This document shows positions 4,961-64,000 of a DNA stretch of 64,000 nucleotides, piece after piece. Every line of letters starts with the position of its first letter. Positions within the stretch are counted from its first letter, which is position 1. The notes under the pieces are model-generated. The model was given only the letters and a program-made list of their open reading frames with translations. It did not search any database and was not told the origin of the DNA. The stretch is from Mobula hypostoma (taxonomy: Eukaryota), in the NCBI RefSeq assembly GCF_963921235.1, contig NC_086097.1, positions 136,402,001-136,466,000 of the forward strand, in the 5' to 3' direction. A program made the translations under genes and the position numbers.

Positions 4961-6468
4961 CCACGTCAGACGCTGCTTCACTCTGAAATACAGGAGCAAT
5001 TCTTACAATGATGTTCCTTCTCTGGAATTGTGTATCAGATCTGGATAGGACATCAGACTGAAGCAACTGGAGAATGCAAATGAACAATGACCTCAATGGC
5101 CAGCTCTGTTGCTATCACTCAGGTCTGATACTGAAATTCGAATATGCAGGAACGTAAGAAGCTGCTGAGAGCTGTGGCTCAGCCCAATATATCAAGGGCA
5201 CATTCCTCTCCTCAATCAGTAGCAACTACAGGAGGCACTCCCTCAAGAAGATAACAACATCCATCAGCAAAGATCCCCATCATCCAGGCCAAGCCACCTT
5301 GCAGCTCATGCAGGAGGTATAGAAAACTGAAGTCCCACCTCAGTAGATTCAAAAGCACCTACTTCCCTTCAACCATTCCGTTCTTGAATCAACTGGTATA
5401 ATCCTAATTACTACCTCTGTATAGCAACACATGACCAATTTGCCTAGTTGGGACTACAATTGGCTTTTGTTCTAATTGTCTTTTTGTGTGATAGTGTGTA
5501 ATTTATGTTGTGAATGTCATGTCTCTAATGCTAGGGGCCTGCAATGCTGCTGCAAGTAATATTTTCATTGCACTTGGACATATGGCAATGAACTCAAAGT
5601 CTTGAATTCCTCTCTCTCTTGCTCGTGACATCAAGACCGTTCACTTCAGTGGAAGTGGAACTGACTCGCTCGATAATCATGTGAAATTAACAGAGTTGAA
5701 AGCGGAGATTTACCCTTGCATTCATGCTGCTTTTTATGCTTACTTAAGCCCAATAGTTGGTCATTTTTCACCTAATAGATTGTTCTTTTAAGAATGAAAC
5801 CAATGTGAAAATCTGTCATATTTCTAGACTGATCTCTGGGAGCAGGAAGGCAGGGTTGATGTACTTCCAAACACAACTTGGTTGTACAAATTTACTCTGC
5901 AAATTTAATTAGCTTCCGGATTAGCAAATTTCAAGCGTAATGAGAAACAGCAGGAATGCTCTACCCTATGTCACAATCTCTGAGTATCTTGGACACCCAG
6001 GCATCCTTTTTTTCCTGTTGGTCTGAGGATTGTGTAGTGTTTCCAAGTAACATTGAGAGAACAAGCCAAAAACAAAGGGAAATATCTTGTCACTTAAAAC
6101 TCTACTTCCACACTACTCTTGAAGGAGAAAAGAACAAGGGTCTCTCTCGCTCGTTCTCTCTGCTTTCACTTTCATTCTTATTCTCTCTAACATTAACAAA
6201 ACAGAATTACCTTGATTCCATGCCAAGGGAAATGGGCTATTCAGCCCCTCTGCTCTCTATCAGTGTTTCTTCTCCACACCAGTTGCCTCTAGTTGAAGAC
6301 TATGCATGGGGAACAGTGGAGCAGAGCCACACTTTCAAAGGGCACGGCCGTACCACTGAAGTTATGAACTGTGATGGAATGCCCTTCCATTTTGAAAGGG
6401 AAGCTTCTAGATCTTATCCCAGGCATAGAAATGGTTAAGGACAGTAAAAGAGGCTCTTTAAATGCAAA

Positions 6469-9255: not shown

Positions 9256-10309
9256 GTTCACCCCCCCCTTGGAAGTTTTCATGTTTTATTTTTTAAGACA
9301 TTGAATGACGGTGGATTTAATGTGGCTTCTTTCGACACTGATCAACAAAAAAAAATTTGTGGCAAAGTAAAAACAGATCTCTACAAGGCGATCTAAATTA
9401 AATACAAATATAAAACACAAAACAATTGATTGCTTATGTATTTACCCGTTCAAGTCAGTATTTAGTAGATGCACCTTTGGCAACAATTACAGCATTGAGT
9501 CTGTGTAGAAAGGCCTCTGTCAGCTTTGCATACCTGAACACTGCAATTTTTCTCCATTCTTCTTTACAAAACTGCTCAAGCTCTGTCATGGGGATCGTGA
9601 GTGAACAGCCCTTATCAAGTCCAGCCACAAATTCTCAGATGGTTTGAGGTCTGGACTCTGACCTGTCCACTCTAGGACATTAACTTTGTCGTTTTTAAGC
9701 CATTCCTGTGTAGCTTTGGCTTTATGCTTGAGGTCATTCTCTTGCTGTAAAGCAAATCTTCTCCCAAGTTGGAATTCTCTTGCAGACTACATCAGGTTTT
9801 CCTCCAGGATTTCCCTGTACTTTGCTGAATTCATTTTACCCTCTACCTTCACAAGCCTTCCAGGGCCTGCTGCAGTGAAGCATCCCCACAGCATGATGCA
9901 GCCATCACCATGCTTCATGATAGGGACGGTGCATTTCTGATGATGTGTGGTGTTTGGCTTACACCAAACATAGCATTTAGTCTGATGGTCAAAAAGCTCA
10001 ATTTCGGTTTCATCAAACCATAGAACCTTCTTCCAGCTAACTTCAAAGCTCTCAAATGCCTTCTGGCAATCTCTAACTGAGATTTCATGTAAGATTTTTT
10101 CAACAATGGCTTTCTCTCTGTCATTCTCCCATAAAGCTGTGACTGGTGAAGCACCCAGGCAACAGTTGTTGTCTGCACAGTCTCTCCCATCTCAGCCACT
10201 GAAGCTTGTAACTCCTCCAGAGTTGTCACAGGTCTCTTGGTGACCTCCCTCACTAGTCCCCTTCTTGCTCAGTTTTTGAGGACAGCCTGCTCTAGGCAGA
10301 TTTACAGCT

Positions 10310-11602
10310 CATCATCATAGCTTGTCACACCAGACAGCCAGCCACTCTAGTGTTGTTTGGTTGATGCTGAGCAGGTCAGTGTCAGCTAAATCAGGTGAGA
10401 GTGGGAAATTGCACAGAATGTGTTCAACGTTCTGCATCCTTTCGCCACACTCACAGGATTCGCTGGTCTTTAAACCCCACTTCACCATATTGTCTCCTGT
10501 CCTACAAACTCCCGCTCTCACTCTGTTCAGAGTGCACCACTTCCGTCTGTCAAGCCGTGCCCCGTCTGGCAACATTTCTATGGAGTCTTGCACTGTATTG
10601 TTTGGCGGGGTTCTGGCTTCTGTTTTTTGCCGGAGGTCAATCCTGTATGTTTGGGGGGATGTTCCGTGCGGTAGTTCCTCCGCTGTAGCAAAGCTTTTCC
10701 TCGATTTTAGGCATTTGGAAATTGGCACATGATGATGTAGTGGGTGCTGTGGATCTGAGTTCTGTTTACCTTTTCCAATTTTTGTTGTAGTGTGTCTTCG
10801 GATCTCTGGGGGAGCAATGCCTGCAAGTCTGTAAATGATGTTAGTGGGTGTGGGGTGCAGTGTGCCCGTGATTATTCGGCAGGCTTCGTTAAGCAGCGGG
10901 TCTATTTTCTTGCATGGGCTGATCTGCTCCACACAGGTGCACAGTATCCTGCAGTTGCATAGCAGAATGCTAGGGCAGTTGATCTAAGTGTGTGAGCATT
11001 AGCTCCCCATTTCGTGCCTGCTAATTTTGTCCTGGAGATCTAGGTTAGGTGGCCACATGAATGGTTCATTAGGGGGTTTGTAGACCAAGATGATATTTAC
11101 GTGTTTTGTTTCAACTTTCAGAAGTTCCATTGAGCCAGCTTGGATGTTTGCTGTGATCATTACTCTAGATTTATCTTTAACAAAGATTGCACTTCCATAA
11201 ACGTCGACTGATTGTTTCCACTGATGCTGACTGACCTGCTGAGTTCCTCCAGCATGTTGTGAGTGTTGCTTTGATCCCAGCATCTGCAGATTATTTTGTG
11301 TTTGCACTTCCATAAGTTTGGCTAGGGGTGTCAATAGCCAAGTGCATTCTTGGCACATAGGGTTGGTTGTTCAGCCAATGAGTTTCTTGTATGCACAAGA
11401 TGTCCGCTTTTAAGTTTGCCAGGATTTCTGCTTTACTGTGGCTGAAGCCTTCGATGTTGTGGCTAACGATTTTCATGATTTCCAGTGGGCCGAGGGTTTA
11501 TCCTTTTACCACCCGCTGGATCAATTGGTCTGGCACGTAATGTCAGGTTTGGTCTCCTTTCGGATTAACAGGGTCATGGCGTGAATGTTCCTGACTCGAC
11601 CC
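10310..11602 (-). mobile_element. Vingi/Ingi-like non-LTR element, internally deleted (endonuclease N-terminus fused to C-terminus, no RT)
   Basis: MKIVSHNIEGFS..ADILCIQETH..VYKPP (APE endonuclease) joined at ~11028 to KLAGTKWGANAHTLRSTALA..LNEACRIITGTLHPTP..LAGIAPPEIRR..CECGE..EHIL; (ATG)n tail; 13-bp TSD CAGATTTACAGCT at 10297-10309 and 11603-11615. Confidence 0.82.
11201..11301 (+). mobile_element. Short Penelope-derived terminal fragment inserted in the Vingi-like endonuclease region
   Basis: ACGTCGACTG..CTGCTGAGTTCCTCCAGCA..GCATCTGCAGA; 14-bp TSD TTGCACTTCCATAA at 11187-11200 and 11302-11315. Confidence 0.88.
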
Positions 11603-12667
11603 CAGATTTACAGCTGTGCCATATTCTTTCCATTTCTTAGAGTTCTTAACCAATTGATTCCCAGCTCTTAAGGGATATTCAGTGACTTTGAAATTTTCTT
11701 GTATCCATTTTGTGACTTATGCTTTTCAATAATCATTCCACAGAGATGCTTGGAGTGTGCTTTTGTCTTCATGGTGTAGTGTTTACCAGGATACTGACTC
11801 ACCAGCAGTTGGACCTTCCAGATACAGGTGTATTTTTACTACAATCAATTGAAACACCTTGACTGCACACAGGTGATCTCCATTTAACCAATTATGTGAC
11901 TTCAAAAACCAATTGACTGACCCAGTGATGATTTGGTGTGTCACATTAAAGGCTGTGAATACTTATGCAATCAATTATTTTGTGTTTTATATTTATAGTT
12001 AATTTAGATTACAGTACTTTGCAGAAATCTGTTTTCACTTTGACATGAAAGAGTCTTTTTCTGTTGATCGGTGTCAAAAAAGCCAAATTAATTCCGGTGT
12101 AATTCAATGTTGTAAGACAATAAAACATGAAAACTTCCAAGGGTGGGGGGTTGAATACTTTTTATAGGCACAGTATGCCAGTGATAATAAACATGATTCT
12201 CATTCTCATTCTCGTGCCTCCAGCTTCTGTCAGTTCAAGCCCTCTCCCTTCCAAATAGTCTAGGCACACGCTTGTTTGAAGATGGGTCTACACATGGTCC
12301 ATCTTCTTAATGATGCTTAGAGCATCAGACACACGACAGTTCATTACTGTGCGAACAGTACCCGAGCCAAACATCCTCAATGAGTAAGAGAGGTTGTGGT
12401 CCTGAGCTGAAGGTCAGCATTGATGATATGTGTCGCAGGCCGCGGTTTCCTGTAGCCATGGCCCATGTTGTTACAAAGGTCCCAGTGGTGGTATTTGGCC
12501 ACAGACAGCCCCTTCCGTAAAAACTCTCGGTCAATAGGGTGGTGCAGAATCAGAATATGGTTTACTATCACTGACAAGTTAAAAAGATTAGTTGTTTTGC
12601 AGCAGTAAGTGCAATACATAAATGGACTACAAATAATAATAACTATATATACTGTATAGTATAAAGA

Positions 12668-13265
12668 TAACCATATAACCATATAACAATTACAGCACAG
12701 AAACAGGCCATCTCGGCCCTTCTAATCCATGCCGAACTCTTACTCTCACCTAGTTCCACCGACCTGCACTCAGCCCATAACCCTCCATTCCTTTCCTGTC
12801 CATATACCTATCCAATTTAACTTTAAATGACAACATCGAACCTGCCTCAACCACTTCTGCTGGAAGCTTGTTCCACACAGCTACCACTCTCTGAGTAAAG
12901 AAGTCCCCCCTCATGTTACCCCTAAACTTCTGCCCTTTAATTCTCAACTCATGTCCTCTTGTTTGAATCTCCCCCACTCTCAATGGAAAAAGCCTATCCA
13001 CGTCAACTCTATCTACCCCCCTCATAATTTTAAATACCTCTATCAAGTCCCCCCTCAACCTTCTACGTTCCACAGAATAAAGACCCAACTTGTTCAACCT
13101 TTCTCTGTCACGCAGGTGATGAAACCCAGGTAACATTCTAGTAAACCTTCCCTGTACTCTCTCTATTTTGTTGACATCTTTCCTATAGTTTGGTGACCAA
13201 AACTGTATACAATACTCCGAATTTGGCCTCACCAATGCCTTGTACAATTTCAGCATTACATCCCA
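12668..13265 (-). mobile_element. CR1 LINE 3' end, well preserved
   Basis: Uninterrupted 168-aa frame LKLYKALVRP..EYCIQFWSP..ERVQGRFTRMLPG..RRLRGDLIEVFKI..FFTQRVVAVWNKLP; (GTTATATG)n tail. Confidence 0.93.
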
Positions 13266-13281
13266 AAAAAAATAGTGAGGT

Positions 13282-27623: not shown

Positions 27624-30600
27624 TCATGCCCCCATGACGCTCAGATAATTCGCCATCCCTTCCTGCAGAACACACAGCCCAATCCACATGCAGAAAGCAG
27701 TGATCTGACTCCCCAACACAGTGGAGACCACACCTTGTTCCCCGGGTGCTATGTAGGTCAACCTTTCTGGGGGTTTCTGACTCCTCTGAGGCCTACGTAC
27801 CCCCTCGTCTACCCCTTCTGCCTCGGATACTACAGGGGACCCTTTGAAACTACAAGGCAAATCCTCCCCTGAGCAGTCACCCAAGCCCCTCTGCACCTCG
27901 GAACCCTCTATCTCTGGTCCAGGCCCTACATCCTCTCCTCCAGCGCCCCGCTGTGCCACGGACTGCCCCTCACTAGTCCCTTCTAACCCAGTGGGGGAAA
28001 GGCCAGGAGTCTCTTCCTCCATCCCGGGAGCATCAGCGAACGGCAGAATGTACCAACCATCCCAGTCATCATCTTCTGAATCAGTATCCCTCACAGGGGC
28101 TGGGCCCGGGCCCGTCTCTCCCGGGGTAGGCACGTCCTCCACCCTGCGGGGACGCAGAGTCCTGGCACAGGGTGCAGCCACCTCTTCGGGCTCCTGCTCT
28201 ACTTGCAGATCTTGCCCCAGGGGCAACAGGTGATTCCGATGAAGAATCTTGACAGGCCCCTTTCCATCCCAAGGCCGTACCTGGAAAACCGGCAGGTTTG
28301 GCATCTGACTCTCCACCACATAGGGCGTGGCTGCCCGGCGATCAGCCAGCTTTTGTTTTCCCGGTAATACCAGATGCCTAATGAGGACTCGGTCTCCCAG
28401 CAGGAGTTGAGAGAACTTTACTTTCCAGTTGTACCTCCTCTTATTTCCCTGATTCTACTGGATGGCAGCCTCCCTGGCCAACTCGTAAGCTCTTTTCAGT
28501 TCTTGCCTCATATCAGACACATACTTCAAGTAAGGCTTTGGTGACACCTCACCCGCATCAGTCCTGAAACTAAGGTCAATAGACAACCTGGCCTCGCGCC
28601 CAAATATAAGATAATAGGGCGAGTAACCAGTAGCTTCATTGCGTGTACAGTTGTAACAGTGAACAAGATGCCCAATATGTCGACTCCAACGATTCTTTTT
28701 GCTAATCTCCAGAGTCCCGAGCATGTCCATTAGTGTCCGATTGAACCTTTCTGGCTGGGGATCACCCTGCGGATGATAGGCTGCGGTCCTCGATTTCTCA
28801 ACCCCCAGCATGCCTAGCAAATCATAGATGAGTTTGCTCTCAAAGTCTCGTCCCTGGTCACTATGGATCTGCCGAGGAAGATCATAATGCACAAAATACT
28901 TCTTCCATAGCATTTTCACCACTGTAGTTGCCCTCTGATCCCTAGTAGGAAAAGCTTGAGCATACCTGGTGTAGTGGTCCGTGATGACCAAGACATTTGC
29001 CATGTTGCTGGCATCAGGTTCTATGGACAGGAAATCCACACACACCAGGTCCAAAGGCCCCGCACTCTGCAATTGGGACAAAGGGGCAGCCTGCCCGGAC
29101 AGCATCTTCCGTCATAGGCAATGAATGCAGGACTTGCAGTACTCTTCAACCTCTGTCCTCATTCGGGGCCAGTAAAACCGATCCTTGAGCAATCCATAGG
29201 TCTTTTCCACCCCCAAATGTCCAGAGTCATCATGGAGGGACTTCAACACAACCTTCCAATACTTCTCCAGCAAGACCAGCTGCCAACACCGAGGTCAGTC
29301 TGGGGGTGACGTTACCCGGTATAACATTTGATTCTTCAACCTCAATCAAAGCCATTCTTTCAGTAACAGGGAACACGGGACCGTGCTTAGCCTTCTCTGC
29401 CCGTGTCACATCCCCCTCTTCCACAGCATGCCAGACCGGACCTATGTCTGGGTCATCTCGCTGCGCAGCGGTCACTTCCCCAGGGCTTAACCCTGGCAGC
29501 TGCGTGGTCTTCAGAGCAGTCAGGTCACAGTACACTAGGGGCAGAGCATCATCCGATGCCCCCAATGAGTCCACTGCTGGATCTGGCCTCTCCTTCTCCT
29601 CAGCCTGCACGGTGATAGCAAACTGGCACATTGCCTTCACCCCGGACGCAGGAACACTCTTCCACTCCTCGTCCTTCCCCGGCTCCTCATGGCCCCATCA
29701 GGACAGAGCATCCGCGCCGACATTCCGGCTCCCCGGCCGGTACTTCAGGCTGAAATCATAGGAAGACAAAGCTGCCAGCCACCGATGGCCTGTGGCATCC
29801 AGTTTTGCTGAGGTCGATATGTAAGCGAATGGGTTGTTGTCGATCCGCACCTCAAACTTGGCCCTGTAGAGATAGTCACTCAGCTTATCCACCACCGCCC
29901 ATTTCAATGCCAGGAACTCCAACTTGTGAGTGGGATAGTTTCTCTCTGAAGGTGACAAACTCCGGCTGACAAATGCTACAGGCCTCAGGCCAGCGCCCTG
30001 ATCCTGATGCAGAACGGCCCCTAACCCCTCATGACTGGCATCAGTGTGTAGCACATAGGGCAATCGGGGTCTGCAAAAGCCAGCACCGGCGCCTGAGTCA
30101 ACATCTCCTTCAGTGACTGGAAAGCCGCTTCACTTTTGTCATCCCATCTCTGTCCGGATGGCTCTGATGGGTTCAAATATTCTCCCACCTCCCGTCCTTT
30201 CCTCACTATCCCCCTCTGCCCCAGGGGAGGGTAGCCACACAGAAGCTGGTTCAAGGGATGATTCACCTTGGTATAGCCCTTCATGAATCTCCGATAGTAC
30301 CCACAGAACCCTAGGAACGAGCGCAGAGCACTTACGGTCTGGGGCCTCAGCCAGGCGGTCATTGCTTCGATCTTAGCCGGATCGGTTGCTACACCATTCC
30401 ACGAGACAATGTGTCCAACATAACTAACAGATGTCTGGCAGAACTGGCACTTGTCCAGGGAAAGCTTCAACCCTTCCAGCTTCAGCTGGGTGAGCACCTT
30501 CATTAGCCTCGCTTCGTGTTCTTCCAAGGTGGATCCAAATACTATGAAATCATCCAAATATACCAACACTTCGAGTAGGTTCATATCCCCCACTGTCTTC

Positions 30601-31286
30601 TCCATGACCCTCTGGAAGGTGGCAGGGGCCCCCGATATGCCCTGGGGCATCCCTTCGAACTGGTAAAAGCCCAAAGGTCAAATGAAGGCCGACTTCTCCT
30701 TATTGGCCTCACTCATCGGGATCTGGTAATACCCACTCCTCAAATCCAGCACACTAAACCACTTCGCCCCACTCAGACAGGCCAGCGCATCTTCCACCTG
30801 GGGGACCGTGTACTGATCAGGGACCATGCGCCTGTTCAATGTTCTATAGTCCACACACATACGAACATTCCCATTCTTCTTCCGGGCCACTATGATAGGA
30901 GACGCATACGGACTTCGGGGCTCCGTGATGATCCCGGCCTCCTTCAACTTGCCCAAATGCTGTCGCATGTCTTCCACATCTGCAGAGGCCAGTCGCCGTG
31001 ATGGTTCTCTAAACGGAGTATCCTCAGTCACCCGTATGGTGTGGCAAGTGCTCCTGGAACAACCCACATCAAATTCATCAAGGGAAAAAACATCTGTCAT
31101 CGTCAACATCTTCTTCACCAGCCTCCGCTTCCAACCCTCTGGTACAGGTGATGCCCCCAAAGTTAAAAAGCTTCAGCAGTCAACTTGGGCCTTTTTCCCG
31201 TCTGTTCTTCCCCAACTGGCCTCACGGGGGCGCTATGCATCACCGTCACTGGGAACAAATGCGCCACAGGCATTCCTCGCTTAAAG
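27624..31286 (-). pseudogene. Gypsy pol pseudogene (RT, RNase H, integrase), frameshifted and 5'-truncated
   Basis: SPYASPIIVARKKNG.VRMCVDYRTLN, LDLRSGYYQI, MPQGISGAPATFQR, VYLDD (RT); LHTDASHEGLGAVL..ERNYPTHKLEFLALKWAV (RNase H); VDFL..ITDHYTRY..IHSDQGRDFES..AYHPQGDPQPERFNRTL (integrase). Confidence 0.95.
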
Positions 31287-36386: not shown

Positions 36387-37458
36387 TTAACAGAGGCTTG
36401 GAGCAGGCCTGACTGGGGTGTCTGAGAGAAAGTGGGGCGTTGAAAATGTGGGGGAGAAATGCTACTCTACGTTTGTTTCCCCACCCAGGATTGTGGTCAT
36501 GCCCGGGGATGAATGAAGGAAAGGAAGGCCTGGCAGTGCTGCACTCCTCGGGTGGGACAGGGGTTCTGGGTAGATTTTCCACTTGAGTCCAAATCCAGCA
36601 CAACGGCTGGGGAATTTAAATTCAGCTAATTAAATAAATTTGGCTAAAATTCAACTTTAATTATCATTCAACCATATATGAATACCCACAAGTACAGCCA
36701 AATGGAACAATGTTCCTCTGGGCCAAGGTGCAAAACATAGTACTAACTCTCATTCCCAGAATAAATTATATATAGCACATATAAGATAGCAGCAAAATTC
36801 ATAGTCACAGGAAAAAGCATATCATAGACCAAGTCCCTAGGGGATATGTCCTGTAAATTGATGGTGCATGGGTGGCAACAGCAAGAACAAGCAGCTCTCA
36901 GCAGTCTGCAGATGAATGTACGCACACATGCAATTCAGCTTGTCATTACGCCAATTGAACACTGGGGGCAGCACTGATGGGAGAGGTCCGCTCCCAACCC
37001 AGCATGGTTGCCACGCTACACCGCCTCAGATATCTCCTCTGCTGAACTGCAACAACAGGCAAGCTTGTGGCTTGAGGACTGGTCCTCACTACAACCGAGG
37101 CCATGCAGATCCCTCGCCGCCTGTCTCACCAATAAACAAGGGAAACGGACTTGCAGCATTTTACATTATCAGGGTCTTGTGATCGCAAGAGAAACATCCA
37201 AGACAATCACTCGCTGTTACAGTGCGCACTGCCTTCATGCATTGACTCTGATGTCTTCCTGGAGCAGGTAGTAACACGGTCCGTACCAGGTCCAGCTCCT
37301 CCACTCGTCCACCAACAAGCAGCTCGCTGATGGGGTAGACCTGTAGTTCCTGAATTTTTTAATTTCTAGCTTTGTCCTGCAATTGTAAAAAAAAGAAAAA
37401 CAACACTTTTGAATAGCCCCCGAGAGGTCCCTGTGTCGAAAAGCACTGCCATCTTACT

Positions 37459-37724
37459 TTTTTTTAAAGTGTGTGACACCAGACAGTCAGCCATTCCTAT
37501 CTGGCGTGTGGTGTCAGGATTGGTCTCCTTTCGGATTAACCAGGTCACGATACGAACGTTCCTGACTCAACCATTTTTTTTTTAACGAGGTCGAGTGGCT
37601 AGCTCGACGCTCAACCTGGCACGGATGGTGGGAAGTGTGCTCAGGGGGTGGCCCGACTTGGATTCGAACTCAGGAGCCTTCGTTCCGGAGTCCAGCGCTG
37701 ATGCCATTGTACCACCAGCTGGCC
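37459..37724 (-). mobile_element. Composite SINE: tRNA-like head, RTE-5'-like segment, A-rich linker, Vingi 5' end, Vingi 3' end, oligo(A)
   Basis: A box TGGTACAATGG and B box GAGTTCGAATCC; 37513-37572 matches 11542-11602; 37468-37497 matches 10319-10348; flanking direct repeat GCCATCTTACT at 37448-37458 and 37722-37732. Confidence 0.85.
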
Positions 37725-37855
37725 ATCTTACTGAAAGTGACAGTGACTGTAACTTTGAAACTCTAGGACTATTGAAAAACTATCTGGTTCAGTCATGTTC
37801 TTCAGGGAAGGGAGTCTACAGTCCTCGCCCAGCTTGGCTTTCATGTGAGCATCAC

Positions 37856-43964: not shown

Positions 43965-45735
43965 AGGGAGGAGAAGATGGCGGCGTGATGCAGCGCGCGC
44001 GGCCGTTCCGAATGAATATCCATTATATGTAACTAGGGGCCGTGCACAATCCGGATTTGATGGAGACAACCGTGAGAAGCACAGAGGAAGACCTAGAGTA
44101 GCTTCTGAAATGCCTGCTTCGCTACCATTGCTACTGTGCGATCGCAAATCTCCGGAGACAAAGGCCCCAAATCCTCGGCTTTGCGTATCACCTGTTGCCG
44201 GGGCCAGGGTCGAAACGCTCGGCAGAGATGGTGCTCAGTGCTCAGTGTCGAAGAGGTGGTCGGAGGCTTGGAGTTCTTCGGACAGACTCGGAGTCGGACT
44301 GTGGTCGGATGCTTCCGGGATGCTGCATCGGCAAGTTGGCGGCACTGGAGGTTTACCGTCTGCGTGAGGTGATGGGACTTTCGAGAGACTTTGAGACTTT
44401 TTTTTTAAATCTTTTTATTGAGTAAGTATACAAAAAAGGTAAGCCATATAAACCTTAATACAATGTTAAAGTATAATAAAATTCCAAAAGATAACAATAC
44501 CAGAAAGAAAATACTACAAACAATGTAATTTAAGCATAAGAAACCAAAATAACATAATAGTATACTAGATTTTATATATATCAATGGAAAAAAAAGAAAA
44601 AAAAAACCCCAAAAAAAAACCCACCGTGCAACTAACTAAAAGCAAAGCAAAGCAATGGGCTAACTTGAAACCAAACAGAGTTAAACTTAAAATCACGTCC
44701 TCAATCCCGACCTCCATTAAAACAGTGAAAAAAAAACAAGAAGGGTAAATATTACATTAAATGAAAATATCGAATAAAAGGTCCCCAAATCTGTTCAAAT
44801 TTAAATGAAGAATCATGAAGGTTACTTCTAATTTTCTCCAGATTCAAACATAAAATCGTCTGAGAAAACCAAAAAAAGGTAGTTGGAGCATTAAGCTCTT
44901 TCCAATGTTGTAAAATACATCTTTTCGCCATTAAAGTAAGAAATGCAATCATTCTACGGGCTGAAGGGGAAAGATTACTAGAAATTTTAGGTAGTCCAAA
45001 GATAGCAGTAATAGGGTGAGGAGAGATATCTATATTTAATACCTTAGAAATAATATTGAAAATATCTCTCCAAAAAGTTTCCAAAGTAGGGCAAGACCAA
45101 AACATATGAGTTAAAGAGGCTATCTGCCCCGAACATCTATCACAGAAAGGATTAATATGCGAGTAAAAACGCGCTAACTTATCTTTGGACATATGTGCTC
45201 TATGCACCACTTTAAATTGAATTAGGGAATGTTTAGCACAAATAGAAGAAGTATTAACTAATTGTAAAATCTGCCCCCAATCATCCACAGAAATGGTAAG
45301 CCCCAATTCCTGTTCCCAATCTACCCTAATCTTATCAAATGGAGCTTTCCTGAGTTTCATAATAATATTATAAATCATAGCCGATGCACCTTTCTGACAT
45401 GGATTAAGGTTAATTATCGAATCTAAAATATATATAGGAGGAAGCATTGGAAAGGAAGGAAGTATAGTACTTAGAAAATTTCTAACTTGTAAATATCTAA
45501 AAAAATGTATTCTTGATAGGTTAGAGACTTTTACCGTGCCATGGTCTGTTCTTATCAAATTATGGTATTGCTTTGCGCTGTTGTAACTATATGTTATAAT
45601 TATGTGGTTTTTGTTAGTTTTTAAGTCGGTTTGTCATGTGTTTTTGTAATATCATTCTGGGAAAATATTGTATCATTTCTTAATGCATGCATTACTAAAT
45701 GACAATAAAAGGGGACTGCGTGACTTCATAATCAT
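43965..45735 (+). mobile_element. Non-coding retroposon, copy 4, split by an L1 insertion (pieces 43965-44401 and 45524-45735)
   Basis: Same 5' GGAGGAGAAGATGGCGGCG and 3' CATAATC ends; family sequence resumes at TTACCGTGCCATGG after the L1; embedded in a minus-strand Penelope-derived repeat. Confidence 0.88.
44402..45523 (-). mobile_element. L1-clade LINE 3' fragment (ORF2 C-terminus, 3' UTR, poly(A))
   Basis: HFFRYLQVRNF..WEQELG..LIQFKVVHRAH..CDRCSGQIASLTHMFWSCP..ILQHWK..LNLEKI; AATAAA plus A tail; TSD GAGACTTTT at 44393-44401 and 45524-45532. Confidence 0.92.
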
Positions 45736-60244: not shown

Positions 60245-60842
60245 CTGGAGCTCAGCTCAAACTATGGTTCTCCACGAGTGATGGGTTCCCGTTCTAGCCG
60301 CGCGACCGGGTGCTTCAGTATCTCCAGGTGCGGCCTGGAAGACTCGCGCCATCAAGGTGCAGCCCCGTGGATGACCCAGCTCCTCGCTGATGTCACTGAC
60401 TGAACCGTTGTGGGAGATTAAAATGTTGGGACAACGGGTGGTGTACATTACCGTCAGAAGGCCCCTGCACTCGAGCGATTTCTCTCTCTCTCTCGATGGT
60501 GAGTGAGAGTCTGTTGGTCCTCGAGTCGGACAAGCAATACGGCAGATGGGTGGCGGTCGGTGCATGGTGGGCGGGGTCGGTGCTTGATGGGTGGCTGGGG
60601 GGGGTCGGTGCTTGGTGGGGGTCGGTGCATGGTGGGGGGGGTCGGTGCTTTGTGGGTGGCTGGGGGGGAAGGGTTGATGCTTTTACTGCTGCTTGTGCGT
60701 GGGAGGGGGAAGGGGGCTTTGTCGCTCTAACATTTCTATCGTTCATTCCTTGGAGATTTTTTTCCGTTTCATGCATGTCTGTGAAGAGTAAGGATTTCAG
60801 GTTGTATACTGTAGACATTCTGTGATATTAACTTTAACCATT
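60245..60842 (+). mobile_element. Probable non-coding retroposon (CpG-rich 5' part, G-rich GGGGTCGGTGC repeats, LINE-like tail)
   Basis: 3' end GTGAAGAGTAAGGATTTCAGGTTGTATACTG resembles the Rex-like 3' tails elsewhere in the window; four GGTCGGTGC units at ~60555-60650. Confidence 0.5.
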
Positions 60843-61049
60843 GGTACAGCGCCAAGGCCGAGGAGGAGGTTACAGCCACACACACCTGGGAGGTTTACAA
60901 GGCACAGGGATGATCCCAACAACCTCCCCCAGCAGTGTGTCTCTGTAGCAGACTCTCTATGGCCTTGTGGAACAGCTCTCCAGCTGTCTGCTCTTCATGT
61001 CCCTCTCAGTAGTCTGGGAGCAAACTCTCAGTTATATCACCTTATCACT

Positions 61050-64000
61050 TCCCCATCCCCTCACCTCTTCTCCCCTCCTCACTGTCCCCCCACCTCTCCT
61101 CCCCTCCTCACTGTCCCCCCACCTCTCCTCCCCTCCTCACTGTCCCCCCACCTCTCCTCCCCTCCTCACTGTCCCCTCACCTCTCCTCTCCTCCTCACTT
61201 CTCCGCCCCTCTCCTCTCCTCCTCACTGTCCCTCCACCTCTCCTCCCCTCCTCACTGTCCCCTCACCTCTCCTCCCCTCCTCACTGTCCCCTCACCTCTC
61301 CTCCTCACTGTCCCCCCACCTCTTCTCCCCTCCTCACTGTCCCCCCACCTCTCCTCCCCTCCTCACTGTCCCCCCACCTCTCCTCCCCTCCTCACTGTCC
61401 CCCCACCTCTCCTCCCCTCCTCACTGTCCCCTCACCTCTCCTCTCCTCCTCACTTCTCCGCCCCTCTCCTCTCCTCCTCACTGTCCCTCCACCTCTCCTC
61501 TCCTCCTCACTGTCCCTCCACCTCTCCTCCCCTCCTCACTGTCCCCTCACCTCTCCTCCCCTCCTCACTGTCCCCTCACCTCTCCTCCTCACTGTCCCTC
61601 CACCTCTCCTCCCCTCCTCACTGTCCCCCACCTCTCCTCCGCTCCTCACTGTCCCCTCACCTCTCCTCCCCTCCTCGCTGTCCCCTCACCTCTCCTCCCC
61701 TCCTCACTGTCCCTCCACCTCTCCTCCCCTCCTCACTGTCCCCCACCTCTCCTCCCCTCCTCACTGTCCCCCACCTCTCCTCACTGTCCCCTCACCTCTC
61801 CTCCCCTCCTCACTGTCCTCCACCTCTCCTCCTCACTGTCCCTCACCTCTCCTCCCCTCGTCACTGTCCCCCACTTCTCCTCCTCACTGTCCCTCAACCT
61901 CTCCTCCTCACTGTCCCTCCACTTCTCCTCCCCTCCTCACTGTCCCCCACCTCTCCTCCCCTCCTCACTTTCCCCTCACCTCTCCTCCCCTCCTCGCTGT
62001 CCCCTCACCTCTCCTCCCCTCCTCACTGTCCTCCACCTCTCCTCCCCTCCTCACTGTCCCTTCAACTCTCCTCCCCTCCTCATTGTCCTCCACATCTCCT
62101 CCCCTCCTCGCTGGCCCCTCACCTCTCCTCCCTCCTCTCTGTCCCCTCACCTCTCCTCCCCTCACTGTACCCTCACCTCTCCTCCCCTCCTCCCTGTCCT
62201 CCACCTCTCCTCCCCTCCTCACTGTACCCCCACCTCTCCTCCCCTCCTCACTGTCCTCCACCTCTCCTCCCCTCCTCACTGTCCCCCACCTCTCCTCCCC
62301 TCCTCACTGTCCCCTCACCTCTCCTCCCCTCCTCGCTGTCCCCTCACCTCTCCTCCCCTCGTCACTGTCCCCCACTTCTCCTCACTGTCCCTCCACCTCT
62401 CCTCCTCACTGTCCCTCCACCTCTCCTCCCCTCCTCACTGTCCCCCACCTCTCCTCCCCTCCTCACTTTCCCCTCACCTCTCCTCCCCTCCTCGCTGTCC
62501 CCTCACCTCTCCTCCCCTCCTCACTGTCCTCCACCTCTCCTCCCCTCCTCACTGTCCCTTCAACTCTCCTCCCCTCCTCATTGTCCTCCACATCTCCTCC
62601 CCTCCTCGCTGTCCCCTCACCTCTCCTCCCTCCTCTCTATCCCCTCACCTCTCCTCCCCTCACTGTACCCTCACCTCTCCTCCCCTCCTCACTGTCCTCC
62701 ACCTCTCCTCCCCTCCTCCACTGTACCCCCACCTCTCCTCCCCTCCTCACTGTCCTCCACCTCTCCTCCCCTCCTCACTGTCCCTCCACCTCACCTCTCC
62801 TCCCCTCACTGTACCCTCACCTCTCCTCCCCTCCTCACTGTCCCTCACCTCTCCTCCCCTCCTCACTGTCCCTCCACCTCTCCTCCCCTCCTCACTGTCC
62901 CTCACTTCTCCTCCCCTCCTCACTGTCCCTCCACCTCTCCTCCCCTCCTCACTGTCCCCTCACCTCTCCTCCCGTCCTCACTGTCCCCTCACCTCTCCTC
63001 CCCTCACTGTACCCTCACCTCTCCTCCCCTCCTCACTGTCCTCCACCTCTCCTCCCCTCCTCACTGTACCCCCACCTCTCCTCCCCTCCTCACTGTCCTC
63101 CACCTCTCCTCCCCTCCTCACTGTCCCTCCACCTCACCTCTCCTCCCCTCACTGTACCCTCACCTCTCCTTCCCTCTTCACTGTCCCCTCACCTCTCCTC
63201 CCCTCCTCACTGTCCCTCCACCTCTCCTCCCCTCCTCACTGTCCCTCACCTCTCCTCACCTCCTCACTGTCCTCCACCTCTCCTCCCCTCCTCACTGTCC
63301 CTTCACCTCTCCTCCCCTCCTCACCTCTCCTCCCCTCCTCACTGTCCCTCACTCCTCCCCTCCTCACTGTCCCTCCACCTCTCCTCCCCTCCTCACTGTC
63401 CCTCACCTCTCCTCCCCTCCTCACTGTCCCTCCACCTCTCCTCTCCTCCTCACTGTCCCCCACCTCTCCTCCCCTCCTCTGTCCCCTCAACTCTCCTCCC
63501 CTCCTCACTGTCCCTCCACCTCTCCTCCCCTCCTCACTGTCCCCTCACCTCTCCTCCTGACTGTACCCTCACCTCTCCACCCCTCCTCACTGTCCCCTCA
63601 CCTCTCCTCCCCGTCCCCCACCTCTCCACCCTCCTCACTGTCCCCTCACCTCTCCTCCCCTCCTCACTGTCCCCTCACTTCTCCTCCCTCCTCACTGTCC
63701 CCTCACCTCTCCTCCCCTCCTCACTGTCCCCCACCTCTCCTCCCCTCCTCACTGTCCCCTCACTTCTCCTCCCCTCCTCACTGTCCCTCCACCTCTCCTC
63801 CCCTCCTCACTGTCCCCACCTCTCCTCCCCTCCTCACTGTCCTCCACCTCTCCTCCTCACTGTCCCTCACCTCTCCTCTCCTCCTCACTATACCCTCACT
63901 TCTCCTCCCCTCCTCACTGTCCCCCACCTCTCCTCCCCTCCTCACTGTCCCCTAACCTCTCCTCCCCTCCTCACTGTCCCCTCACCTCTCCTCCCCTCCT
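61050..64000. repeat. Polypyrimidine/polypurine minisatellite, unit ~28-30 bp (CCCTCACCTCTCCTCCCCTCCTCACTGTC), runs off the window end
   Basis: Roughly 100 variant units; the plus strand is almost all C/T apart from CAC and ACTG. Confidence 0.97.

Follow-up and report, generated by a model that had tools for sequence, protein, structure and literature searches.

A high-copy composite SINE family of batoid fishes with Vingi-like and RTE-like parts and a ribozyme-type fold that looks disabled

Results

Organization of the element

The window that we analysed is a 64,000-nt stretch of Mobula hypostoma contig NC_086097.1 (positions 136,402,001 to 136,466,000), and all coordinates below are window coordinates. 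On its minus strand, from 37724 to 37459, lies a 266-bp element composed in order of a tRNA-like head, an RTE-like hairpin, an A-run, a Vingi-like LINE's 5' end together with its last 11 codons, and an A-tail. In Table 1, we report the parts of this element together with those of a Vingi-like LINE copy found in the same window.

Table 1. Features of the composite SINE and of the Vingi-like LINE copy in the window.
Feature	Position	Strand	Description
5' target-site duplication	37725..37732	-	8 bp are secure, 11 bp when 37724-37722 are included
tRNA-like head	37649..37724	-	A box 37714-37704 and B box 37669-37661; recognised by the A+B box pair
Linker	37618..37648	-	small insertions here relative to most copies; at least two linker variants exist (contig tables)
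Module B	37584..37617	-	hairpin resembling an RTE 5'UTR motif; folding, and by-eye comparison with RTE-2_EBu/RTE-4_EBu as well as with RTE-2_DPl/HaSE1
Internal A-run	37574..37583	-	10 nt, end of the RTE-like motif; 37574 is the ribozyme G1 position in the Vingi register
Module C	37499..37573	-	Vingi 5' end; HDV/CPEB3-type fold 37574-37513; P2, P3 and P4 are paired, G1.U and G25 altered
Module D	37464..37496	-	last ten codons and stop of the Vingi ORF; 26/33 nt identical to the Vingi copy
Oligo(A) tail	37459..37465	-	common to 4/32 contigs among those listed
3' target-site duplication	37448..37458	-	direct repeat
Internally deleted Vingi-like LINE	10310..11603	-	start of APE fused to the C-terminal part; tail of TGA repeats; sits in a Tc1-type transposase
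Predicted HDV/CPEB3-type ribozyme	11542..11603	-	lies exactly at the 5' end of the Vingi-like copy, with G1 at 11603 and the position of the catalytic C at 11552

Comparing the window with itself, we find that 73 nt of module C (37572-37500) are 80.8% identical to 11601-11529 (E 2e-14), that module D (37496-37472) matches 10347-10323 at 22 of 25 positions (E 0.004), and that the window holds no second copy of the SINE. The original prediction, made from the letters of the window, had described four modules on the minus strand within one direct repeat and had assigned the last two to the 5' and 3' ends of a Vingi-like LINE; modules, repeat and assignment all hold. The repeat measures 11 nt (37732-37722 and 37458-37448). 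Among 20,000 random pairs of sites in the window, a repeat of at least 11 nt was seen once and one of at least 8 nt 65 times. It does flank the whole unit as predicted, with a secure length of 8 bp and three further ambiguous letters, because other copies of the element end at 37724.

The head had been called tRNA-like, which is right for its Pol III A and B boxes: this pair (37714-37661) is the sole one in the first 60.7 kb of the window, and 3 of 100 shuffles had one. The description does not extend to a tRNA that ARAGORN would recognise at its default or at thresholds down to 75% (at 70% it gives an unassigned call), and an Rfam search up to E 10 returns no tRNA match in the SINE region. 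On the sense strand, the first TTTT lies 17 nt beyond the tail and might be used as a Pol III stop. In its A/B-box head, its many short, dispersed and uniform copies, and its target-site duplication (TSD) and simple-repeat tail, the element agrees with a tRNA-derived SINE (SINE2).

The window is repeat-rich in general. It includes a CR1-type ORF remnant at 12753-13280, whose best named matches are from Mobula hypostoma (84%) and Leucoraja erinacea (81%), and the broken pol region of a Gypsy-type LTR retrotransposon at 27624-31172 on the minus strand, with RT, RNase H and integrase-like frames. Positions 60792-64000, at the end of the window, form a tandem C/T-rich array of low complexity. Its GC and AT skew is extreme, and it may be subtelomeric.

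A high-copy family

We aligned the contigs of four of 24 runs, each of the four with its own organism label (X1, X5, X11 and X13), to positions 37340-37830 at 80% likeness, which placed 3377, 3046, 1452 and 2677 contigs in the four runs. In X1, the summed depth, which we take as a sign of a high-copy repeat and not as a copy number, is about 14 just outside the head, reaches 5,000-88,000 over bins 37476-37730, and drops at both TSD borders. The depth profiles of X5, X11 and X13 have the same shape; X13 has zero cover at 37731-37764, a gap that we left out of the reading. In X13, the depth over the head is also far above that over module B.

The contigs also show how the modules are joined elsewhere. 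Among the 32 records listed, of about 10,600 matches, 22 bridge the joint between modules B and C with at least 31 nt on each side, 12 run from module C into the head, and four run from the tail into module B; none of these 32 holds a whole paralogous copy with both TSDs in one contig. Each bridging record has 7-37 differing letters, so these records come from other loci. The check set by the original prediction was whether other copies join the tRNA monomer to the Vingi 5'+3' monomer, and such copies occur at other loci in the contigs of all four runs. Together with the one TSD, these joined copies bear out the claim of a single retroposed unit.

The contigs that bridge B and C, and those that run from C into the head, indicate one family instead of two adjoining insertions. 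Two separate events, a tRNA SINE that ended in the A-run and then a short Vingi-derived element beside it, would accord with the tail-like look of the internal 10-nt A-run, with a dip in depth at the junction bin, and with the occurrence of head and module B in front of other 3' parts too. We find this very improbable nonetheless, given the single TSD that encloses the whole unit and a bridged junction that has fixed family letters across the joint in four runs. That we are dealing with a single composite SINE family is, in our judgement, nearly certain.

The limits and variants of the family can be read from loose contig ends. The 5' end is placed at 37724 by two rows, of 44 and 52 contigs, whose flanks are unrelated. 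Past the A-run, further loose ends (37+40 contigs in X1, 28 in X5 and 32 in X11) agree with each other in the first nine or so letters of another 3' continuation, pointing to sister SINE families that would have the same head and module B and other 3' parts. Loose ends at 37575-37580, 37628 and 37659 are likewise of the kind expected from sister families and at least two linker variants. In X11, one contig covers the head together with the upstream flank; as it has 8 differences in 136 nt, flank included, the insertion at this locus is probably shared with the X11 organism.

The Vingi-like LINE copy

The window's Vingi-like LINE has its own 12-bp TSD, at 11615-11604 and 10309-10298. This corrects the predicted 5' end by one base, from 11602 to 11603. 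The copy matches the N- and C-terminal parts of full-length relatives. A Vingi-like LINE is present as predicted, but not an intact one: it lacks what corresponds to residues about 128-757 of a full-length relative, and since these include the RT core, the copy is dead. Its C-terminal part has 13 relatives among 578 candidates, with identities of 31-90%. All five of the full-length relatives scanned (912-1020 aa) have APE and RT, four of the five give a weak C-terminal zinc-binding match, and none has RNase H. In the part of PMC13708176 available to us, a single ORF with APE and RT and without RNase H is what distinguishes Vingi from Ingi. On the domain architecture of its relatives, we classify the LINE as probably Vingi-like, noting that no named Vingi protein is among the matches.

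The copy splits a transposase remnant on the minus strand (9787-11950), which we read from its translation as Tc1-type and whose frame resumes across the 12-bp TSD. Inside the APE region of the LINE sits a repeat fragment of about 100 bp (11201-11301) with a 14-bp duplication, and similar pieces occur at 6460, 9148, 20468, 24968 and elsewhere. A search for other Vingi loci gave four GTDB contigs, none of which includes a 5' end, and no viral contig. The Vingi-like eukaryotic LINE fragments (L005-L008) are in two prokaryotic GTDB MAGs and are likely binning contamination. A 20-mer of module C hits four metagenome contigs, which we rejected as prokaryote-like chance matches limited to 20-23 nt; behind this chance match there is a prokaryotic transposase-like ORF common to L001, L003 and L004 (around 722 onward), unrelated to the SINE. 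Neither this 20-mer nor one from module B has a match in viral contigs.

The 3' ends of SINE and LINE are not the same. Module D reads CHTL at its end and is followed by an A-tail, while the LINE copy reads CDKL followed by TGA repeats; the close relatives have CDKL or RDKI/L. A sibling Vingi subfamily as the source of module D is a weakened candidate, as the close relatives end like the Vingi copy of the window. A different reading accepts the composite SINE, takes its Vingi parts as relics, and names as its mover another LINE that takes A-tailed RNA, of the L1/Tx1 type. To this one may count the A-tail as against the TGA-repeat tail of the Vingi copy, the last 12 nt of module D, where only 7 of 12 agree and the conserved DK[LI] end is broken, and an L1-like ORF remnant in the window (44752-45633, from our reading of open frames). 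However, the module at the 3' terminus of the SINE is the end of a Vingi ORF, the normal site of partner recognition according to the available text of PMC5786205; the TSD of 8-11 is near the 12 of the Vingi copy; and a tail exchange that brings in both Vingi ends is sensible only with Vingi doing the work. We consider a mover other than Vingi distinctly unlikely, and a Vingi-type LINE is our preferred partner for this SINE.

A ribozyme-type fold at the Vingi 5' end

Module C was correctly identified as a Vingi 5' end in the original prediction, which missed that this end has a ribozyme-type fold. The Rfam CPEB3 model (RF00622) aligns to 11615-11542 with 12.5 bits and E 0.9, a score that does not reach the gathering score of 35; in the SINE region there is no Rfam ribozyme match up to E 10. 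In a register with a 6-bp P1, G1 is 11603, right at the TSD border, so that the predicted cut site coincides with the first base of the LINE as defined by its TSD. In the Vingi copy, P1 has 6/6 pairs, with a G.U first pair, P2 has 6/7, P3 1/3, P4 3/3 and P1.1 1/1; L3 is CPEB3-like, and U20/G25 and the catalytic C of J4/2 are present. Both breaks in P3 are CpG-type changes. The SINE module C has P2 7/7, P3 3/3 and P4 3/3. Against the printed Rfam consensus, 4 of the 10 P2/P3 pairs are changed on both sides, and all are Watson-Crick (compared by eye, with a rough chance of 2e-5). Our data include one Vingi 5' end and, with its P3 of 1/3 and P2 of 6/7, no intact Vingi ribozyme.

Descriptor searches give a mixed picture. 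A strict HDV descriptor finds neither site and has one unrelated match, which is about the shuffle rate. A scored descriptor, which was written after the sites had been seen, ranks the two sites first and second of 339 scored, with a site as good as the second-ranked one in 4 of 40 shuffles; the Vingi and SINE sites are homologous and hence not independent in this ranking.

The fold has the order and pairing of the CPEB3 ribozyme (RF00622) and of the L1Tc/ingi Pr77 ribozyme (PMC4035085, as far as available), with P1, P2, P3, P1.1, P4, the L3 loop and the J4/2 C. It is also like Pr77 in its position, at the first base of an Ingi-group element (same source). It differs from both in its 6-bp P1 (one short of CPEB3), its very short P4 and its sub-threshold Rfam score, and in being known from sequence alone; the SINE version differs further in having letters of the catalytic core changed. 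[quoted passage not shown] Kojima (2018) gives six clades with a 5' ribozyme, and Vingi is not listed in the text at hand (PMC5786205). From these models, the Vingi 5' end appears to fold as a CPEB3-type HDV-like ribozyme, for which we predict self-cleavage.

Changed catalytic letters in the SINE

With the majority letters of the family, module C is identical to the Vingi copy at 65 of 76 positions. Taking CPEB3 as the outgroup, four of the differences are SINE-derived: G1 to A (37574), its U partner to G (37541), C24 to T (37552) and G25 to A (37551). The first pair is A.G, and an A stands at the G25 position; the copy in the window and the majority letters of the four runs agree in this. The Vingi-type letter has less than 8% of the depth in all four runs for G at 37574, G at 37551 and T at 37541 (minus strand), as every T>C place is explained by other positions and the tally of changes lists no C>A place; for the C24 position it has less than 8% of the depth in three runs.

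Changes at these places have been studied in other ribozymes of this type. [quoted passage not shown] Judged by its letters, the ribozyme copy in the SINE looks disabled. In the available text of Kojima (2018), it is argued that a SINE would be truncated by an active ribozyme lying downstream of its RNA head (PMC5786205). The change of G1.U and G25 with the stems kept would fit this conjecture, since the promoter in the head would be retained.

The fold in Vingi may be real and the changes in the SINE have another cause: neutral drift of a master copy, or cleavage in another register, in which case the SINE would shed head-less monomers of modules C and D. The SINE-derived changes number only four, the clustering test that we applied to them (0.0013, with one Vingi 5' end as the reference) is post hoc, and an alternative SINE register can be drawn, with a G1-C pair, a 6-bp P1 and a 2-bp P3, which the family letters permit. 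On the other hand, all four fall at the equivalents of G1, its partner, C24 and G25 and leave P2, P3 and P4 untouched, and, in a comparison by eye, the alligator SINE2-1_AMi has also changed U20 and shortened P1 relative to Vingi-2_Gav. Drift or another register seems to us unlikely, though by no means negligible; we prefer a disabled ribozyme.

Module B and RTE

The second segment had been likened to an RTE 5'UTR motif, and this comparison stands as one made by eye: about 25 of 38 letters (~65%) of module B agree with the 5'UTR motif of RTE-2_EBu/RTE-4_EBu (PMC7245038, the part available). A pattern drawn from the RTE motif has module B as its sole match in the window and no match in 100 shuffles, although it was tuned after the site had been seen. 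Module B folds as a hairpin with z -1.8, the single-strand folding z-scores being modest overall (-0.1 to -1.8). In published excerpts, the motifs of RTE-2_DPl and RTE-2/4_EBu have the same start, the same spacing and the same A-run end as module B. As the A-run is part of the RTE motif, it need not be an old tail.

Module B could instead be an unrelated SINE body, which would make the element an ordinary SINE of tRNA head, body and bipartite Vingi part, like SINE2-1_ACar. The window is without an RTE LINE for comparison, the likeness to the published RTE motifs is one of ~65% over 38 nt by eye, and an exact-word search of the accessible Kojima 2018 supplement does not find the motif. Against this, two RTE lineages agree in the layout just described, and the pattern is unique in the window and absent from the shuffles. 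We assign an unrelated body a small but real probability, and regard an RTE origin of module B as likely from its letters. The alternatives weighed in this and the preceding sections are not mutually exclusive.

Discussion

Proposed origin and mechanism

We explain the element best as one copy from a batoid-fish family of tRNA-derived SINEs, high in copy number, that arose by tail exchange. In the sequence of events that we propose, an older SINE made of a tRNA head and an RTE 5'UTR would have lost its 3' part and, by tail exchange, gained a short, internally deleted Vingi derivative in which the 5' end was joined to the 3' end. Pol III would transcribe the result from the A and B boxes, a Vingi-type LINE protein would bind the Vingi-derived 3' end of the SINE RNA, and target-primed reverse transcription would insert it, leaving a duplication of 8-11 bp. 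In the LINE, the CPEB3-type ribozyme would cut the transcript to produce its exact 5' end. The same cut in the SINE would strip off the head with its promoter, and the family that spread would be one in which the G1.U pair and G25 had changed while stems P2-P4 were still paired. The whole chain, from the tRNA and RTE-5' SINE through the exchange with a bipartite Vingi, Pol III transcription and insertion by Vingi to a folded, inactive ribozyme, is one that we favour with moderate confidence.

Known relatives

Composite SINEs of this general layout have been described. Excerpts of Kojima (2020; PMC7245038) report the hagfish SINE1-1_EBu and SINE2-1_EBu as RTE 5', RTE 5' and RTE 3' parts brought together by tail exchange. 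Like the element presented here, they have an RNA-gene head, an orphan 5'UTR of one LINE and the 5' and 3' parts of a second, and their RTE motif resembles module B. Both of their donors are RTE, whereas here the second donor is Vingi-like and contributes its extreme 5' end with the ribozyme-type fold. The anole SINE2-1_ACar and SINE2-1B_ACar have a tRNA head with Vingi 5' and 3' parts (PMC5786205, PMC4494074); they come from a lizard and not a batoid, and the available descriptions, by which we set SINE2-1_ACar apart, include no RTE-like module. The alligator SINE2-1_AMi (PMC5786205) likewise places a Vingi 5' end after its tRNA head, with a ribozyme-like core that by eye is altered relative to its donor. 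It differs in a 3' part of unknown origin and in having no RTE-like module, and its Vingi 5' end is not called a ribozyme in the accessible text of that paper.

Our literature search, outside of which lay the sequences in Repbase, Dfam and SINEBase, found no SINE combining RTE and Vingi and no batoid family of such a kind. The layout is already known from hagfish and anole, and the combination of RTE and Vingi, as set apart from the literature alone, was not found in print and is a candidate novelty. The same search, outside of which also lay Kojima 2011 and Ruminski 2011, which may bear on the matter, found no Vingi ribozyme and no link of Vingi to a ribozyme in the text available.

A possible source of the CPEB3 ribozyme

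Leaving aside the interior of P4, positions 2-74 of the crocodilian Vingi-2_Gav agree by eye with the Rfam RF00622 CPEB3 consensus at 52 of 54 letters. The CPEB3 ribozyme is said, in the available part of PMC8233481, to lack a non-mammalian counterpart, and the literature that we searched does not state an origin from Vingi. This comparison raises the possibility that the mammalian CPEB3 ribozyme was exapted from the 5' end of a Vingi element. The joint proposition that Vingi starts with a working CPEB3-type ribozyme, that the ray SINE spread after a switch-off at G1.U and G25 in parallel with SINE2-1_AMi, and that CPEB3 was exapted is one that we hold tentatively, at somewhat less than an even chance.

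Significance

Should the ribozyme part fall, the finding reduces to a new but ordinary SINE family of rays. If the ribozyme part is true, Vingi would join those clades that have HDV-like ribozymes at the 5' end, a point of relevance to gene-writing templates based on Vingi-1 in which the native 5'UTR is kept (PMC13708176, available portion), and the comparison of Vingi-2_Gav with CPEB3 would provide a testable origin for the mammalian ribozyme. For the family itself, the proposed history would describe a SINE assembled from two LINE clades in which the fold was retained and the chemistry is predicted to be lost, and it would amount to a natural test of the conjecture of Kojima (2018) that 5' ribozymes limit which LINE ends enter SINEs.
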